64,000 bases of DNA from Alphaproteobacteria bacterium (GTDB taxonomy: Bacteria > Pseudomonadota > Alphaproteobacteria > CACIAM-22H2): assembly GCA_017308135.1 (NCBI GenBank), contig JAFKFM010000014.1, forward strand, positions 65,507 through 129,506, in the 5' to 3' direction. Shown here piece by piece: positions 18,916-32,089 of this stretch. Every line of letters starts with the position of its first letter. Position 1 is the stretch's first letter. Made by a program: the position numbers and the translations under genes. The notes beneath the pieces were generated by a model that searched no databases, was not told where the DNA came from, and saw nothing but the letters and a program-made list of their open reading frames with translations.

Positions 18916-20412
18916 ATGATCAAGAACGGCGAACAGCATATTGCCAGCCTGCGTGACGGCCGCGAGGTTTACCTCGATGGTGAACTGGTCAAGGACGTTA
19001 CCACCCATCCAGCCTATCGCGGAGCAGTCGCTTCAATCGGACGTATGTTCGACTTCCAGAGCGCGCCGGAAAATCGCGATCTCATGACGTTCGAGACTGA
19101 GACCGGAACCCGCGCCAACCGGATATGGGAATTGCCGGGCAGCTACGACGCGCTGGTCAAGCGCCGTAAGGGCCTTGAGGCATGGACCGAACTTCATGCG
19201 GGATTCATGGGCCGCGCGCCGGACCATGTCGCATCCTGCATCGCGGGAATGTTCATGGGGCTCGATGTGTTCGAGGCTTATAATCCCGAACGTGCAAAGG
19301 CTCTTGCTGACTATTATCGCCATGCGCGCGACAACGATCTCTATCTGACTTACGTCATCATCAATCCGCAGGCTGACCGCTCCAAGAGTGCGGCCCAGCA
19401 GGCTGATCCGTTCCTGTCGGCGGGCGTTGTTTCGCGTGAGGCAGATGGTCTGATCATCCGCGGGGCCAAGATGCTGGCCACCGGCGGAATCATGGCCAAC
19501 GAAGTTTTCGTCACCTGCATTCAACCGCTGCAGCCCGGCGACGAGAAGTACGCGGTGTCCTTCGCCATTCCGATGAATACCAAGGGTCTGAAGATCCTGT
19601 CGCGCAAATCCTATGAAGCCGGCGCGAATTCGGTATTCGATAGCCCGCTCTCCAGCCGCTTCGACGAAAACGACGCGGTGCTCTATTTCGATGACGTGAA
19701 GGTGCCGTGGGATCGCGTGTTCATCGATCAGGACATCGCGATGTGCCAGAAGCAGTTCCATGCGACGCCGGCGCATGTATATCAGAACTATCAGGCAATG
19801 ATCCGGCTGACGGTCAAGCTGCGCTTTCTTACCGGTGTCGCGCATCGCACTGCCGAGATCAATGGCATCGTCGGCTTCCCGCAGGTTCGGGAAATGCTCG
19901 GTCAGCTTGCCGCCGAAGTCTCGATGGTGGAAGCTTTCGTGCTCGGCATGGAAGCCAAGGGCACGCAGCGCGGTCAATACTTCACGCCAGACCGGGCGCT
20001 CCTGTACGGAGCACAGGTGCTGACCCAGCAGCTCTATGCAAAGGTCATCAACACACTGCGCGAACTCGCCGGCGGCGGCATGATCATGCTGCCTTCCTCG
20101 GTGAAGGATTTCGCAAATCCCGAACTGGCGGCGTTGATCGGAAAGACTCAGCAGTCGCCGGCGGCGAATGCCGTCGACAAGGTGAAGTTCTACAAGCTTG
20201 CCTGGGATGCGGTGGGGTCCGAGTTTGCATCGCGGCATTCGCAATACGAAATGTTCTTTGCCGGCGCGACCTTCGTCACCAAGGGCCATGCGTTCCGCAC
20301 CTTCGATTGGGCGCAGTCGACTGCATTGCTCGACAAGATGCTGTCCAGCTACGATCTGGCGGATGAACTCACAACCGGTGGAAAATCTCCGGCGTCCCGC
20401 GCGGTCGCTTGA
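18916..20412 (+). CDS. 4-hydroxyphenylacetate 3-monooxygenase (HpaB) family flavin-dependent monooxygenase, oxygenase component
   Basis: N-terminal LRDGREVYLDGELVKDVTTHPAYRGAVASIGRMFDF matches the HpaB family. 499 aa. GGGGAG RBS. Confidence 0.85.
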   Translation: MIKNGEQHIASLRDGREVYLDGELVKDVTTHPAYRGAVASIGRMFDFQSAPENRDLMTFETETGTRANRIWELPGSYDALVKRRKGLEAWTELHAGFMGRAPDHVASCIAGMFMGLDVFEAYNPERAKALADYYRHARDNDLYLTYVIINPQADRSKSAAQQADPFLSAGVVSREADGLIIRGAKMLATGGIMANEVFVTCIQPLQPGDEKYAVSFAIPMNTKGLKILSRKSYEAGANSVFDSPLSSRFDENDAVLYFDDVKVPWDRVFIDQDIAMCQKQFHATPAHVYQNYQAMIRLTVKLRFLTGVAHRTAEINGIVGFPQVREMLGQLAAEVSMVEAFVLGMEAKGTQRGQYFTPDRALLYGAQVLTQQLYAKVINTLRELAGGGMIMLPSSVKDFANPELAALIGKTQQSPAANAVDKVKFYKLAWDAVGSEFASRHSQYEMFFAGATFVTKGHAFRTFDWAQSTALLDKMLSSYDLADELTTGGKSPASRAVA

Positions 20413-20816
20413 TCGGATAGACCGAAGGTCGGCCATTATCGCCGACACCCTTCACGATGGATTGCGCGCTGTCGATCCGTCGTGATGTTGCGTGCTGAGG
20501 CTATATTTCTCGGCGTTCGGTAAGCGGAGCTTAGCCAAGATATCGAGCAGCCAGATGGTGCGGCGGATGATGATCCGCTGCGGCAGACGTTTACACAGCC
20601 GAACCATTCGTCCATGAATATAAAGGTGCATCTGTTCACCGCCGATGTCGTCATCGCCGGTTCAGATGCGGGGAGGGGTCGGCTGACCGAATGCCTACGA
20701 AGCTACTTGCCATGCGGCAAATGCGGCCCATGGGGCCTGCACGGGAAGCCATGTGTTGACGGAGGCGCGCCATTTCGATCCAAGCTGAAACCGAGCCGCG
20801 GCGACTGATCGTCGGC

Positions 20817-21380
20817 ATGACCGGAGCGTCCGGTGCCATCTATGGCGTCCGGCTTCTTCAGCTATTGCAGCAGACTGACGTGGAAACACATCTTGTGCTG
20901 AGCAAGTCGGCCAAGATCACCTTGGCGCAGGAACTGGATATCAAGGTTTCCGATGTCCTCGCGCTCGCCGATGTCGTCCATCAGGCGGAGAATATCGGAG
21001 CCACGATTTCCAGCGGATCGTTCGCCACCATGGGCATGATAATCGCGCCGTGCTCCATGCGCAGTATGGCGGAGATATCGTCTGGCGCAACATCTTCACT
21101 GGTGACGCGCGCCGCCGACGTCGTGTTGAAGGAGCGCCGTCGTCTGGTTTTGATGGTCCGCGAAACACCGCTGCATCTCGGTCATCTCAGATCGATGGTT
21201 GCGGTGACTGAAATGGGCGGGATCGTCTATCCGCCGGTTCCGGCCTTCTATGCCAAGCCGTCAAGCATCGATCAGATGGTCGATCAGACGTTGGGGCGCG
21301 TGCTGGATCTTTTCGCGATCAAGACGGATGTCGTCCGTCGCTGGGAAGGGCTTACTCCGAGTAAAAGTCGAGATCAGTGA
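20817..21380 (+). CDS. UbiX/PAD1-family flavin prenyltransferase (prFMN synthase). The true start is probably upstream (ATT at 20772).
   Basis: GMTGASGAIYGVRLLQ...CSMRSMAEISSG. The conserved RRLIVG strand is encoded in frame immediately upstream of the first ATG. Confidence 0.8.
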   Translation: MTGASGAIYGVRLLQLLQQTDVETHLVLSKSAKITLAQELDIKVSDVLALADVVHQAENIGATISSGSFATMGMIIAPCSMRSMAEISSGATSSLVTRAADVVLKERRRLVLMVRETPLHLGHLRSMVAVTEMGGIVYPPVPAFYAKPSSIDQMVDQTLGRVLDLFAIKTDVVRRWEGLTPSKSRDQ

Positions 21381-21418
21381 CGGGTTAATTTGCAACGGGT
21401 CTTTGGGGGAGGGCGCGA

Positions 21419-21949
21419 ATGGCAAAGGAAGGCGAGAATTTCTCGAACGAAAGCTGGTCTTTCGCGTTGCGTCTCTATGCGGAGTCCGGCGTGGCCGAAG
21501 CGTGCCTTCGTTTGCAATCTATTGCGGGCGTCGATGTGATGATGCTTCTTGCTGTCTTATTCGCTGCGTCGCAAAAGAATATCTCATTGTCCTTTGAAGA
21601 TGTGAAAGCACTGGACGGTGTTTGCCGTCCATGGCGCGAGCAGGTCGTTCATCCTCTGCGTGCGCTGCGAACCGCTTTGAAGTCTGGACCGGCGCCCGCT
21701 CCAACATCTGAAACCGACCAGCTGCGTTCGCGCATCAAGGCCGATGAGCTTCAGGCTGAGCAGATCGAGAACGATCTGCTCGGCAACTGGCTGCAGCATA
21801 AAACACGGGCACCGGCCGCACTCTCGCGACATCAGGTCCGCGGCATTCTGGCAGACGTTGTGCGGTGCTTTGGTGCCGATTCCTCAACGATCGAAGTCTC
21901 TGCTGAGGTCGATGTCATTCTCGGCGCGACCGCCAGGCTCTCTGCATAG
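21419..21949 (+). CDS. Conserved hypothetical protein, DUF2390/TIGR02444-like (recognised from memory only)
   Basis: N-terminal SWSFALRLYAESGVAEACLRLQSIAGVDVMMLLAVLFAA pattern. Lies between the UbiX-like and UbiD-like genes. Confidence 0.55.
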   Translation: MAKEGENFSNESWSFALRLYAESGVAEACLRLQSIAGVDVMMLLAVLFAASQKNISLSFEDVKALDGVCRPWREQVVHPLRALRTALKSGPAPAPTSETDQLRSRIKADELQAEQIENDLLGNWLQHKTRAPAALSRHQVRGILADVVRCFGADSSTIEVSAEVDVILGATARLSA

Positions 21950-21996
21950 TGCGGTGCACGCTGTTAATTTAATCAGCGAATGCTTGTTTCGTGTTC

Positions 21997-22024
21997 TTGA
22001 CTAGCTTTGTAATTTAACTATCGT
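21997..22024 (+). promoter_or_regulatory. Putative promoter/operator TTGACTAGCTTTGTAATTTAACTATCGT (-35 TTGACT, 16-nt spacer, -10 TATCGT) upstream of the UbiD-like gene
   Basis: A near-identical 24-nt motif recurs at 29115-29142. Confidence 0.45.
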
Positions 22025-22057
22025 CCAATGCAATTTCTTGTGGGGACAGGACCTGAT

Positions 22058-23482
22058 ATGGCGCAGCCGCAAATTCTCGATACTCGTTTTCGTTCGGCGC
22101 TGGCGCGTCTTGCCAAGAAAGATCGCATCCTGACGTTTGAAAAGACGGCGGACCCCCATCTTGAAATCGCAGCGGTCTTGAAGAAGCACGATGGCCGCCA
22201 AACGATGCTGTTTCCCGCAGTCAAGGGATACGATGTTCCGCTGGTCGGTAATCTTCTCAGCTCGAAGGAGAATTGCGAGGCTGCGTTTGATCTCGATTTT
22301 CGTGGCATCCGCGGATTGGTTCAGCGCGCGCTCGGCGGACCATTGCCGCCGGAACTCGTCACGAATGCGCCTTCGCAGGAGGTTGTTCTTAAAACCGGAT
22401 TCGATGTCACCAAGCTGCTGCCTGCGCTTTTCCACGCGCCGGGTGATGCAGGGCGCTACGTCACCGCGGGGATCGTGATCGTCAAAGATCCTGAGACGGG
22501 TATCTACAACGCATCCTATCATCGCTTGCAGTTGCTGGGGCCGGATCGCTTCGCAATCAAGCTCGACTTCGGCCGGCATCTTCGTCTGGCATTCGAACGC
22601 GCCAAAGCGCGCGGCAAGTCGCTGCCGGTCGCCGTCTGTATCGGTACGGATCTTGCGCTGCATTTTACCGCCGCCACGATGGGCTCGCAGATGCCTGAGA
22701 CGGCTGACGAGCTTGCAGTTGCCGGTGGCCTTGCGGGGCGGCCGTTGACGGTTGCGAAGGCCGTGTCGCAAGACATGATCGTTCCGGCCGAATGCGAGTT
22801 CGTGCTCGAAGGCGAAATCTCGATTGACGAGGTTGCTCCGGAAGGACCGTTCGGCGAGTTCGTCGGGTTCGCCGCTCCCGCGGCCGATGCCCCCATTCTG
22901 AAGGTCACGGCGGTGACCCACCGCATGCGGCCGATCTATCACGTCATCAACGGCTTCGGCCGCGAGACGATTATCCTGCGCAAATACGTGTTGGAAGCGA
23001 GCCTTCTCAAGGTATTGCAGGCTGCAATCCCGATCGTGACGGATGTTGAGATGACGTCGGGCGGTTTGCACCGTTTTCATGCAATCATTCAGGTCGAGAA
23101 GCGGAGCCGTCAGCACAATGGATTGCAGCGCAACGCCATTCTCGCGGCGTTCGGCGCGCTGAAGGATTTGGATCTGATCACTGTGGTCGATCACGATATC
23201 GATATTCGCGACCCGATCGATGTCGAGTACGCGATCGCAACACGCATGGAAGCGTCGAGCGATCTATTCCTCATTCCCGGCGCGCGTGGGCACGAATATG
23301 TTCGTGTCAGCAAGGATGGTATCCGCACCAAACTCGGTATCGACGCAACGGTGCCTTTTGAGGATCAGGACAAGTTCCGGCGTGTTGAATTTGCCAAAAC
23401 CGATATCGAGCTTGGCGATTTTACACCGGGTGCCAATACGGCGATCCAGTCGCTCGGGATCGACGGATCGAACATCGCATAA
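22058..23482 (+). CDS. UbiD-family prFMN-dependent (de)carboxylase
   Basis: The N-terminal region and the APEGPFGEFVGF motif match UbiD-family decarboxylases. 474 aa. Confidence 0.85.
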   Translation: MAQPQILDTRFRSALARLAKKDRILTFEKTADPHLEIAAVLKKHDGRQTMLFPAVKGYDVPLVGNLLSSKENCEAAFDLDFRGIRGLVQRALGGPLPPELVTNAPSQEVVLKTGFDVTKLLPALFHAPGDAGRYVTAGIVIVKDPETGIYNASYHRLQLLGPDRFAIKLDFGRHLRLAFERAKARGKSLPVAVCIGTDLALHFTAATMGSQMPETADELAVAGGLAGRPLTVAKAVSQDMIVPAECEFVLEGEISIDEVAPEGPFGEFVGFAAPAADAPILKVTAVTHRMRPIYHVINGFGRETIILRKYVLEASLLKVLQAAIPIVTDVEMTSGGLHRFHAIIQVEKRSRQHNGLQRNAILAAFGALKDLDLITVVDHDIDIRDPIDVEYAIATRMEASSDLFLIPGARGHEYVRVSKDGIRTKLGIDATVPFEDQDKFRRVEFAKTDIELGDFTPGANTAIQSLGIDGSNIA

Positions 23483-28383: not shown

Positions 28384-28398
28384 CAGGAGTTGCCCCGC

Positions 28399-28977
28399 GT
28401 GCCGGGATCGACGGTGACAAAACCAGAACTGATGCCCGGAGGGGATGATGCGGTTTTTCGCACCTTCATTCACGACTTTCTGGCATTTAGCGCGCGTGTC
28501 GACCAATGCCGGGTTGGATTCGGCGAGCGTCTCGGAATTTCAGGCATCGCATATACGACCCTGATATCGATCGCCTACCTGCAGGGTGAGAAGGGAGTCG
28601 GCGTAAGCCGCGTTGCCGAGCACCTTCATCTGTCGGGCGCATTTGTCACCATTGAAGTGTCGAAGCTGGTCGAAGCCGATCTCGTGAAGAAGCGGGTCAA
28701 CGAAAGCGACCGCCGTCGCGTCTTGCTGACGGTGACGCCCAAAGCGAAGCGGCTGCTCGATGAGCTTGCCAGCATTCAGGCTCCCGTCAACGACGCTCTT
28801 TTCGGCTGTCTCAGCGCCGCCGAGTTTGCGCTGTTGTCATCGATGCTGGCGCGCCTCGTCCCTTGCGGCGACAAGGCGGTTTCGATGCTCGCTTTCACGT
28901 CGAAGTGGTCGAAGGCGCCAGCTGTGAAGTCTGCGAATTCCATAGAGAAGCGCAAAAGCAAAAGGCGTGCAGCCTGA
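28399..28977 (+). CDS. MarR-family transcriptional regulator
   Basis: Winged helix: LISIAYLQGEKGVGVSRVAEHLHLSGAFVTIEVSKLVEADLVKKR. AGGAG RBS. GTG start proposed; the ORF is open from 28390. Confidence 0.7.
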   Translation: MPGSTVTKPELMPGGDDAVFRTFIHDFLAFSARVDQCRVGFGERLGISGIAYTTLISIAYLQGEKGVGVSRVAEHLHLSGAFVTIEVSKLVEADLVKKRVNESDRRRVLLTVTPKAKRLLDELASIQAPVNDALFGCLSAAEFALLSSMLARLVPCGDKAVSMLAFTSKWSKAPAVKSANSIEKRKSKRRAA

Positions 28978-30977: not shown

Positions 30978-31496
30978 GTGCAGGATCGTGCTTTCAGGCG
31001 TACGTTAGGGGAATTTGCGACCGGCGTTGCCGTGGTGACGGCGCGCGGCAGGGGCGATGATCTGGTCGGAATGACGATGAGTTCGTTCAATTCCGTTTCC
31101 GTCGATCCTCCGCTTGTCCTCTTTAGCGTCGATCGAAAGGCTCTCAGCCTGCCGGCGATGCAGGAAGCCAAAGGCTTCGCAATCAACGTGCTGGCGCGCG
31201 AGCAGGAAAACGTTTCCAATCAATTCGCGCGGGCTCTCTCCAACAAATGGGATCAGGTGAAGACGAGCGTCGGTCATGCCGAAGCTCCGCTGATTTCCGG
31301 CGCGCTAGCTCATTTTGAGTGCGAACCCTATGCGACTTACGATGGCGGCGACCACGTTATTTTCGTGGTGCGCGTCGTTCGCTATTCATCGCATCCGTCC
31401 TCGCCCGCGCCGCTGGTTTTCTTCCGTGGCCGCTATCGCGATTTGGTTGATGAAGCCGAGCGGACACCCGAGTGGCCACTCCCCATTCATTACTGA
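30978..31496 (+). CDS. NAD(P)H-flavin reductase (HpaC/flavin reductase-like domain)
   Basis: FRRTLGEFATGVAVVTA...GMTMSSFNSVSVDPPLVLFSV matches flavin reductase domains. Confidence 0.8.
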   Translation: MQDRAFRRTLGEFATGVAVVTARGRGDDLVGMTMSSFNSVSVDPPLVLFSVDRKALSLPAMQEAKGFAINVLAREQENVSNQFARALSNKWDQVKTSVGHAEAPLISGALAHFECEPYATYDGGDHVIFVVRVVRYSSHPSSPAPLVFFRGRYRDLVDEAERTPEWPLPIHY

Positions 31497-31708: not shown

Positions 31709-32089
31709 ATGCCAGTGAACAAGAAGCATGACGAATTCCACACGATTGACCTGAAGAGCGGTTGGGAAACCCCGGCAGGCTATCCGGCAGGCATCCAGCA
31801 AAAGATTCTGTCCGGTTCTCTTGATGAGACAAACAACCGCGGCACACGGACGCGGCTGCTTCGCTTTGAACCGGGCGTCTACACAACTGCGCCGTTCTCC
31901 CACGACTATTGGGAAGAAGTGTATCTCATCTCCGGCGATCTGATTGTTGGCAATGATGCGAACGGCGAAGGTGGCGAGAGCTTTCAGCCGAACACCTACG
32001 CCTGCCGCCCGCCGCATGCGAAGCATGGACCGTTCAAGTCCATCAATGGCTGCATGCTCGTTGAAATCCATTATTTCGATCCGGTCTGA
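31709..32089 (+). CDS. Cupin-domain protein
   Basis: 126 aa. The two-His cupin motif region YWEEVYLISGDL...HAKHGP. Confidence 0.65.
   Translation: MPVNKKHDEFHTIDLKSGWETPAGYPAGIQQKILSGSLDETNNRGTRTRLLRFEPGVYTTAPFSHDYWEEVYLISGDLIVGNDANGEGGESFQPNTYACRPPHAKHGPFKSINGCMLVEIHYFDPV

Follow-up and report, generated by a model that had tools for sequence, protein, structure and literature searches.

The flavin prenyltransferase gene ubiX considered here lies on the forward strand of a 64,000-nucleotide (nt) stretch of contig JAFKFM010000014.1 from an alphaproteobacterium, referred to in the following as the window. Comparison with related loci suggests, at a probability of about 0.8, that ubiX is a working gene which is translated from an AUU codon at position 20772, placed by the sequence GGAGG 6 nt upstream. 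This ATT appears to be a legacy of an overlap with a cupin gene that has since decayed in the window lineage. ATT starts are of a known kind, and the one of this gene is already found in database annotation; added here are the overlap origin of the ATT and the identity of the seemingly empty upstream DNA as a dead cupin gene.

A preliminary description of the region had listed an in-frame TGA at 20757, a GGAGG Shine-Dalgarno (SD) sequence at 20761-20765, an ATT at 20772 and the first ATG at 20817. All of these coordinates are exact and belong to one frame. Read from the upstream stop, the frame translates as RRRAISIQAETEPRRLIVGMTGASG and runs through ...EPRRLIVG-M-TGASG; as had been stated, it holds no ATG, GTG or TTG between the TGA and the first ATG. 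Near-cognate codons other than the ATT are ATC 20778, CTG 20805 and ATC 20808, and the 202 codons of the gene are free of interruptions. Such a stretch of 19 codons free of canonical starts would occur with a chance of about 0.4, and the bare pattern is not above chance. The observation is counted as real because of homology, namely the UbiX strand encoded upstream of the ATG and the recurrence of stop, SD and ATT in other genera.

The product initiated at the ATT is recognized by the NCBIfam profile NF004685 with 274.8 bits (cut-off 188), matching from residue 10, and by TIGR00421 with 238.8 bits (cut-off 108.9); PF02441 is precomputed for the identical protein P0001. The E. coli UbiX chain 1sbz begins with MKLIVGMTGATGA and its residue 2 aligns with residue 11 of the query, while RRLIVGMTGASG aligns with residues 2-13 of 1sbz and with the profile from positions 1-2 onward. 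Both the 1sbz alignment and the NF004685 profile thus bear out the earlier proposal that the codons 5′ of ATG 20817 specify the conserved first strand of UbiX. In solved UbiX/Pad1 chains the LIVG strand is preceded by one or two residues, and the element xLIVGxTGASG (strand plus phosphate-binding loop) is contained in the product only if the start lies upstream of 20817.

Initiation at ATG 20817 would yield a protein of 187 aa, as reported by callers of the Prodigal type (P0002). This codon is indeed the first canonical start and was chosen by the gene caller for the close relative L001, but its product would be devoid of the first strand of the UbiX fold, the counterpart of residues 1-6 of 1sbz. 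Every solved UbiX/Pad1 chain has this strand, as do the family profiles. At the matching position, Tardiphaga, Bradyrhizobium and Pseudorhodoplanes have an Ile codon (ATC or ATT), and the codons upstream of it are conserved as protein. Orthologues that start at this position and lack RLIVG, which would have spoken against an upstream start, were not what the alignment revealed: the strand is present in them. The Arg codons of the preceding PRR vary synonymously (CGG/CGA/AGG and CGA/CGC/CGT) and hence are translated, which places the start upstream of PRR. A start at ATG 20817 is therefore hardly credible.

The conservation of the start region was assessed in 11 distinct loci. Three of these represent the window lineage, that is, the window itself and the loci L001 (98% aa identity) and L002 (95%), both from other sequencing runs. 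The others comprise three loci from Tardiphaga (L003, L163, L164), one from a Pseudorhodoplanes metagenome-assembled genome (MAG; L175), three from Bradyrhizobium sp. Leo170, B. elkanii and B. erythrophlei (L004, L169/L170 and L171, respectively) and one of metagenomic origin. The arrangement TGA-N-GGAG-N7-ATT is kept in 11/11 loci, covering at least four genera or lineages. Nine of them lack any ATG, GTG or TTG before RLIVG and the remaining two carry a GTG or TTG directly after the ATT; the absence of a canonical start between the stop and the conserved N-terminus was found for the window and nine other loci, two of which are near-identical. In the three Tardiphaga, the Pseudorhodoplanes and the three Bradyrhizobium loci the sequence reads TGA TGG AGA TxC AxT ATT TCG, with no canonical start before RLIVG. 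Isolate genomes showing this arrangement are those of Tardiphaga sp. 768_D3_N2_1, Tardiphaga sp. OK246, Leo170, B. elkanii and B. erythrophlei, and L001 and L002 keep both the in-frame TGA and the ATT. The ATT with its upstream GGAG is the sole start-like element common to all 11 loci, which agrees with the rare ATT start that had been considered; the thought that relatives might use ATG at the equivalent position found no support, since the orthologue alignment has ATT there too.

Among 80 loci from a genome scan, a canonical start was lacking only in the two closest (L003, L004). In a scan of metagenome proteins the relatives among the matches listed were at most 71% identical, and 74/74 assessable cases had a canonical start upstream of the strand. 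The source of the window appears to be a MAG, for which an ATG changed to ATT by a sequencing or assembly error might be suspected. The same ATT occurs in two assemblies from other runs, making three independent assemblies, as well as in isolate genomes, finished or draft, of three genera, and an error is refuted.

The origin of the ATT becomes apparent from the DNA upstream of ubiX. The preliminary description had found no convincing open reading frame (ORF) in these approximately 400 bp, which is correct, and the stretch can be aligned colinearly with intact cupin genes as a decayed copy. In this copy, ATT (20435-37) has replaced the former ATG, and the TGA at 20786-88 corresponds to the former stop, so the 3′-end of the remnant overlaps the ubiX start by 17 nt. 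Of the aligned positions, 168/319 nt are identical to the Tardiphaga cupin gene, and tblastn recovers fragments only, in two frames. According to the alignment, several frame-breaking indels are common to the window, L001 and L002; the copy must have died before these three diverged. An intact upstream ORF ending near the ubiX start is thus missing from the window. In seven loci (L003, L004, L164, L169, L171, L172, L175) an intact cupin ORF overlaps ubiX by 17 nt.

In the Tardiphaga, Bradyrhizobium and Pseudorhodoplanes relatives the cupin ends with ...C-L-L-M-E-I-H-Y-F-D-P-A and a stop, encoded by CTG ATG GAG ATC CAC TAT TTC GAT CCG GCC TGA. Read in the ubiX frame, the same bases give TGA TGG AGA TCC ACT ATT TCG ATC. 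The in-frame TGA, the GGAG and the ATT of the relatives are therefore built from cupin codons, the TGA arising from CTG-ATG. A search for the cupin family gave 5,702 matches. Within the 126-aa proteins among the top 120, the C-terminal motif E-x-H-Y-[F/Y]-D-P has invariant E, Y, D and P residues and retains H in 111/112 cases. A cupin Tyr followed by Phe or Tyr permits only A[T/C]T as the ubiX codon, and ATG, GTG and TTG are excluded at this position. A synonymous change of the cupin codon TTC to TTT creates TTG as the next ubiX codon and is seen in L172-L174. In Tardiphaga sp. OK246 (L163:2637-2915) the cupin carries a premature TAG (TTC TAG CCG versus TTC AAG/CAG) and comprises 92 instead of 126 aa. 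A second lineage thus appears to be losing the cupin, yet it keeps ATT-TCG at ubiX.

What happened to the start after the decay of the cupin can be followed in the window lineage. Between the window and each cupin-bearing relative, the TGA, GGAG and ATT are identical at 10/10 bases, whereas only 1-2/8 flanking and spacer bases agree (post-hoc Fisher p = 0.0003-0.0015). Because the cupin frame of the window is dead, cupin coding cannot explain the retention of SD and ATT there. This suggests that the SD and the start are themselves under selection. Purifying selection also acts on ubiX, which is intact and whose PRRLIVG codons are conserved as protein. Among the window, L001 and L002, the ratio of nonsynonymous to synonymous substitution rates (dN/dS) takes values of 0.07-0.13 at dS of up to 0.28; in comparison with other genera it amounts to 0.11-0.15 (dS 0.9-1.5). 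A neutral model is rejected within the window lineage with p = 1.6e-5 to 6.7e-14. Since the frame-breaking indels of the cupin remnant are common to all three members, this selection post-dates the loss of the overlap.

These data also bear on the possibility that ubiX has recently become a pseudogene or survives as a hardly expressed relic, whose start was not restored after overlap and coupling with the cupin were lost. The decay of the upstream cupin copy would suit such a fate, as would the flavin reductase and MarR genes, which flank the locus in relatives and are not adjacent in the window, and the canonical starts gained by L002, as if ATT alone were insufficient. The frame of 202 codons is intact, however, and the dN/dS of 0.07-0.13 after cupin decay lies far from 1, with neutrality rejected at p <= 1.6e-5. 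The downstream DUF2390 and ubiD genes are intact as well, and SD and ATT were kept while the spacer diverged. A degenerating gene is consequently very unlikely, and the lesion that had been offered as an explanation for the missing ATG is contradicted by the same observations.

Initiation at AUU has to be weighed against other near-cognate codons located 3′ of it, namely ATC 20778, CTG 20805 or ATC 20808, of which the latter two had been named as alternatives before. RefSeq records of orthologues use ATC at codon +2 or ATT/ATC at codon +6; the CTG at the Leu of RRLIVG is kept in most loci (ATG in L002, TTG in the L165 group), and in E. coli reporters CUG and AUU are about equally efficient at initiation. 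Against these codons, +2 is ACC in three relatives and +6 is ACC, ACA, GGC or GTC elsewhere, so that neither can be a shared start. CTG 20805 and ATC 20808 have no SD at a useful distance, and starting there would sacrifice PRR, whose codons vary synonymously as translated sequence does. The GGAG precedes the ATT by 7 nt in all loci (in the window, the ATT follows the full GGAGG after 6 nt). On this evidence a start at one of these codons is regarded as improbable.

Existing annotation reflects the same choice of codons. GenBank MBN9499815.1 (P0001; MAG, Alphaproteobacteria bacterium) equals the ATT-initiated product with 100% identity over 202 aa and reads M followed by SIQAETEPRRLIVG. Records starting at the ATT (codon 0) are MBN9499815.1, SNS46560.1/WP_089262995.1, SHH56828.1 and the Pseudorhodoplanes MAG protein. 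The ATC at +2 was annotated for WP_371423611.1, WP_063623347.1 and WP_130579750.1, and ATT/ATC at +6 for WP_441245025.1 and WP_154072502.1. The codon-0 ATT is the sole annotated start present in every locus, and a single rule, ATT 7 nt after GGAG, fits all of the differing NCBI records. Calls of the Prodigal type shorten the proteins of relatives, P0002 beginning with MTGASG and P0003 with MIVGMTGASG; the short MTGASG call of P0068 is a choice of the gene caller, as a GTG start is present at that locus. Gene callers restricted to canonical starts accordingly trim UbiX to a product without its first strand. A literature search returned nothing on UbiX start codons.

Recoding from an upstream ATG was considered as a further explanation, either as read-through of UGA 20757 from ATG 20751 or, in relatives, as a +1 frameshift producing a cupin-UbiX fusion. 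The window contains ATG-TGT-TGA in frame directly upstream, with a C after the stop, UGA-C being a leaky context in E. coli, and ubiX lies in the +1 frame with respect to the cupin. This mini-ORF lacks a good SD, though, and none of the cupin-bearing relatives has it; in L002 and relatives, the base after the UGA stop is U. A conserved slippery or +1 shift site is missing from the overlap, where the codons before the stop vary (CCA GCC, CCG GCC, CCC GCC, CCA GTC), and the TAA stop of the L172 cupin argues against a conserved frameshift signal. In addition, UbiX is encoded on its own at loci with a truncated (L163), decayed (window) or missing (L165 group) cupin. Recoding thus has very little to recommend it. 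The mini-ORF reads ATG-TGT-TGA in the window and L002 and ATG-AGT-TGA in L001. It could offer a route of termination and reinitiation to the ATT, or be chance among three close sequences.

Several points weigh against translation from AUU 20772. GGAGG-N6-ATT is not enriched in the window, with a count of 2 versus 1.8 expected from shuffles. In 8/11 loci the same bases also encode the cupin C-terminus, and the ATT conservation in relatives, constrained by the cupin Tyr-Phe codons, is hence not independent proof. Retention without the cupin constraint is seen only in the window lineage, comprising three closely related sequences. The near-cognate CTG 20805 is conserved too, the database starts disagree (ATT at codon 0, ATC at +2, ATT/ATC at +6), and the canonical codons of L002 suggest that ATT alone may be marginal. 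Finally, the start position is inferred, and so is the efficiency of AUU initiation in the host, for which E. coli values were used.

Loci that lost the overlap differ in their start regions. The window and L002 have GGAGG, and the cupin-bearing relatives and L001 have GGAGA. L002 gained two canonical codons, a GTG directly behind the ATT and an ATG in place of the Leu codon of RRLIVG. In the L165 group, ubiX is located behind an ABC permease without a cupin, and an extra codon leads to GGAGG-TAA ATT TCC GTG. Neither hpaB nor a cupin is found upstream in L005-L007, where ubiX starts with ATG. Canonical starts thus appear where the overlap is gone, which agrees with the sort of compensation that Belinky et al. 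(PMC5622118) considered, without proving it. In a neighbour-joining (NJ) tree, the 15-member clade and the window lineage each have 100% support, and the grouping of Tardiphaga/Pseudorhodoplanes with the window lineage and the L165 group has 80%. The ATG group L005-L007 is not firmly placed (41% against nested), and the tree assigns no start state to the base of the whole clade.

A more far-reaching idea, which we put forward tentatively and hold to be rather less than an even chance, is that the AUU is a selected setting and not a tolerated defect. Overprinting on the cupin HY[F/Y]DP would have locked the ATT and tied UbiX to cupin translation, with compensation wherever the overlap was lost. 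Under the same tentative proposal, compensation would consist of a stronger SD in the window and of newly gained canonical codons elsewhere (GTG/ATG in L002, GTG in the L165 group). If true, the clade would represent a natural series to gauge the share of coupling in initiation at a non-canonical codon.

The metagenomic loci L165-L168 and L176-L178 (JGI) have the order UbiD, NMT1-type binding protein, ABC ATPase, permease, ubiX and DUF2390. Just 5′ of their ubiX, the sequence ATGATGGAG[G/A]TAAATTTCCGTGATCCGG resembles the cupin 3′-end (ATGGAG...ATTTC..GATCCGG). When ubiX moved in these loci, it apparently took a relic of the overlap with it.

For the working gene proposed here, the 30S subunit would be positioned by GGAGG at the same spacing as for the ATG of the next gene downstream, where GGAGG-N6-ATG is found at 21408-21421. 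The fMet-tRNA would pair with AUU through a third-base mismatch that initiation factor 3 (IF3) disfavours, and initiation should be much weaker than at AUG. The predicted product is a UbiX of 202 residues in which a short disordered tail (M-SIQAETEP) precedes the RRLIVG strand. Its output may amount to a small fraction of the AUG level, which would be adequate since the enzyme only makes prenylated flavin mononucleotide (prFMN) for the UbiD decarboxylase, encoded two genes downstream. In the relatives, ribosomes ending the cupin ORF 14-17 nt downstream could reinitiate at the AUU (translational coupling) and so offset the weak codon. With the cupin lost, ubiX of the window lineage would depend on de novo initiation at SD and AUU.

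Values from E. coli give an impression of the strengths involved. The genes infC and pcnB have confirmed AUU starts, and reporters place near-cognate codons at 1-2% of AUG (bioRxiv 10.1101/063800); another reporter study found AUU 6-8-fold below AUG and attributed about half of second-cistron translation to reinitiation (PMC3592434). Reinitiation can use start codons upstream of the stop (PMC10666635).

Searches for additional RNA-level signals were negative within their scope. An Rfam scan of 20000-22200 at a permissive threshold produced only a chance-level match to PtaRNA1 (E 0.98) outside the region. Promoter and terminator scans around the ubiX start revealed nothing above shuffles. For six loci, 100-nt segments around the start were folded; the Z values of -0.44 to +0.67 indicate no structure that sequesters SD or ATT.

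The features of the region are compiled in the following table.

Table 1. Positions of the ubiX start elements and of neighbouring genes in the window.
Feature	Position	Strand	Remarks
ubiX-family flavin prenyltransferase, coding sequence from ATT	20772..21380	+	202 codons and TGA stop
ATT, proposed initiation codon	20772..20774	+	first near-cognate codon after the in-frame stop; invariant in 11 loci
Shine-Dalgarno GGAGG	20761..20765	+	6 nt 5′ of ATT; GGAG core invariant in 11 loci
In-frame TGA closing the ubiX frame upstream	20757..20759	+	kept in 11/11 loci
First ATG, internal Met16 (G-M-TGASG), not the start	20817..20819	+	equivalent codon Ile in relatives
Mini-ORF ATG-TGT-TGA in the ubiX frame	20751..20759	+	specific to the window lineage; stops 12 nt before ATT
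Decayed remnant of 126-aa Cupin_7-like gene	20435..20788	+	colinear with intact Tardiphaga/Bradyrhizobium cupin genes
hpaB-like oxygenase component, upstream gene	18916..20412	+	85.6% identical to B. elkanii orthologue
TIGR02444/DUF2390 protein	21419..21949	+	follows ubiX in every locus of the clade
UbiD-family decarboxylase, presumed UbiX client	22028..23482	+	TIGR00148 305 bits (cut-off 245)
Intact second 126-aa Cupin_7-like copy	31709..32089	+	ends ...CMLVEIHYFDPV and stop; 77% aa identity to B. elkanii protein

In relatives, the order of the locus is MarR (divergent), flavin reductase, hpaB, the 126-aa cupin, ubiX, DUF2390, ubiD and tctC. In the window, a second cupin, a flavin reductase and a MarR-like gene are situated about 10 kb downstream, beyond tctCBA, a thiamine pyrophosphate (TPP) enzyme and an aldehyde dehydrogenase. 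The intact cupin copy adjoins the flavin reductase (30978-31496, +), and the MarR-like gene (28390-28977, +) lies about 3 kb upstream. Judged from this gene order, the window locus appears to be rearranged or partly duplicated relative to the relatives, and the intact copy may have made the first cupin dispensable.

For the HpaB-like protein, TIGR02309 matches with an E-value of 2.6e-104, below its equivalog cut-off. The longest ORF of this gene starts from TTG 18895 and encodes 505 aa, and the orthologues have 498-499 aa; the alignment begins at ATG 18916 (MIKNGEQH...), which is probably the true start. The DUF2390 gene overlaps ubiX by 4 nt in L165-L170 and L176-L178. Its pairing with ubiX persists at loci that have ubiD in another place or on the opposite strand (L007, L165), and DUF2390 may be a dedicated partner of UbiX; a literature search gave nothing on DUF2390 function. 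A UbiD-family gene is located near ubiX in the window and this association is also found in relatives. The true start of UbiD may be ATG 22058, as called in L001 (474 aa). Its closest solved chain is 6h6v_A (E 1.9e-93), which we take to be the HmfF furandicarboxylate decarboxylase, followed by the indole-3-carboxylate decarboxylase AnInD (7p9q). The combination of UbiD, hpaB and tctCBA suggests that a (hetero)aromatic acid is taken up, decarboxylated and hydroxylated, as far as the gene content allows a prediction.

Well-supported bacterial AUU starts are few, and the one proposed here spans several genera of Nitrobacteraceae-like alphaproteobacteria. It opens no new category of mechanism; its traceable dual-coding origin, together with the differing outcomes after loss of the overlap, provides a testable system of weak start and coupling. 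With respect to the protein, the window gene product matches the UbiX/Pad1 structures 1sbz, 4zaf and 6qlg over the full length from the RLIVG strand (E 2e-54 to 6e-60), and the partner UbiD gene nearby is a shared feature. Differences are the nine-residue N-terminal tail before the strand, the non-canonical start and the location in a cluster of an aromatic-acid catabolic type (hpaB, tctCBA) instead of ubiquinone synthesis, as the gene context would indicate.

Known coupled pairs include trpB-trpA and the coat and lysis genes of phage fr with an overlap of 34 nt (PMC10666635, PMC12548453, PMC3592434). The loci of Tardiphaga, Bradyrhizobium and Pseudorhodoplanes resemble them in that the ubiX start lies 17 nt inside the cupin 3′-end with the SD in the overlap, a geometry compatible with reinitiation by back-scanning. 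They deviate from the usual pairs by an overlap of 17 nt, not 4 or 1, and by the putative AUU start, and in the window the upstream ORF is gone. E. coli infC (encoding IF3) and pcnB share with ubiX the lack of a canonical start, an SD-preceded AUU conserved among relatives and an expected low efficiency. In contrast to these genes, no autoregulatory logic is evident for ubiX and UbiX is not a translation factor; its start is predicted from sequence, and its AUU is traceable to a coding constraint of an overlapping gene. In ebpA of Enterococcus faecalis (PMC4447247), the annotated downstream ATG was likewise wrong and an upstream ATT was predicted from the conserved N-terminus; attenuation of expression by the weak ATT would be another common trait. 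The ebpA start was experimentally tested, and the abstract mentions no overlap origin, which is the feature that would set ubiX apart.

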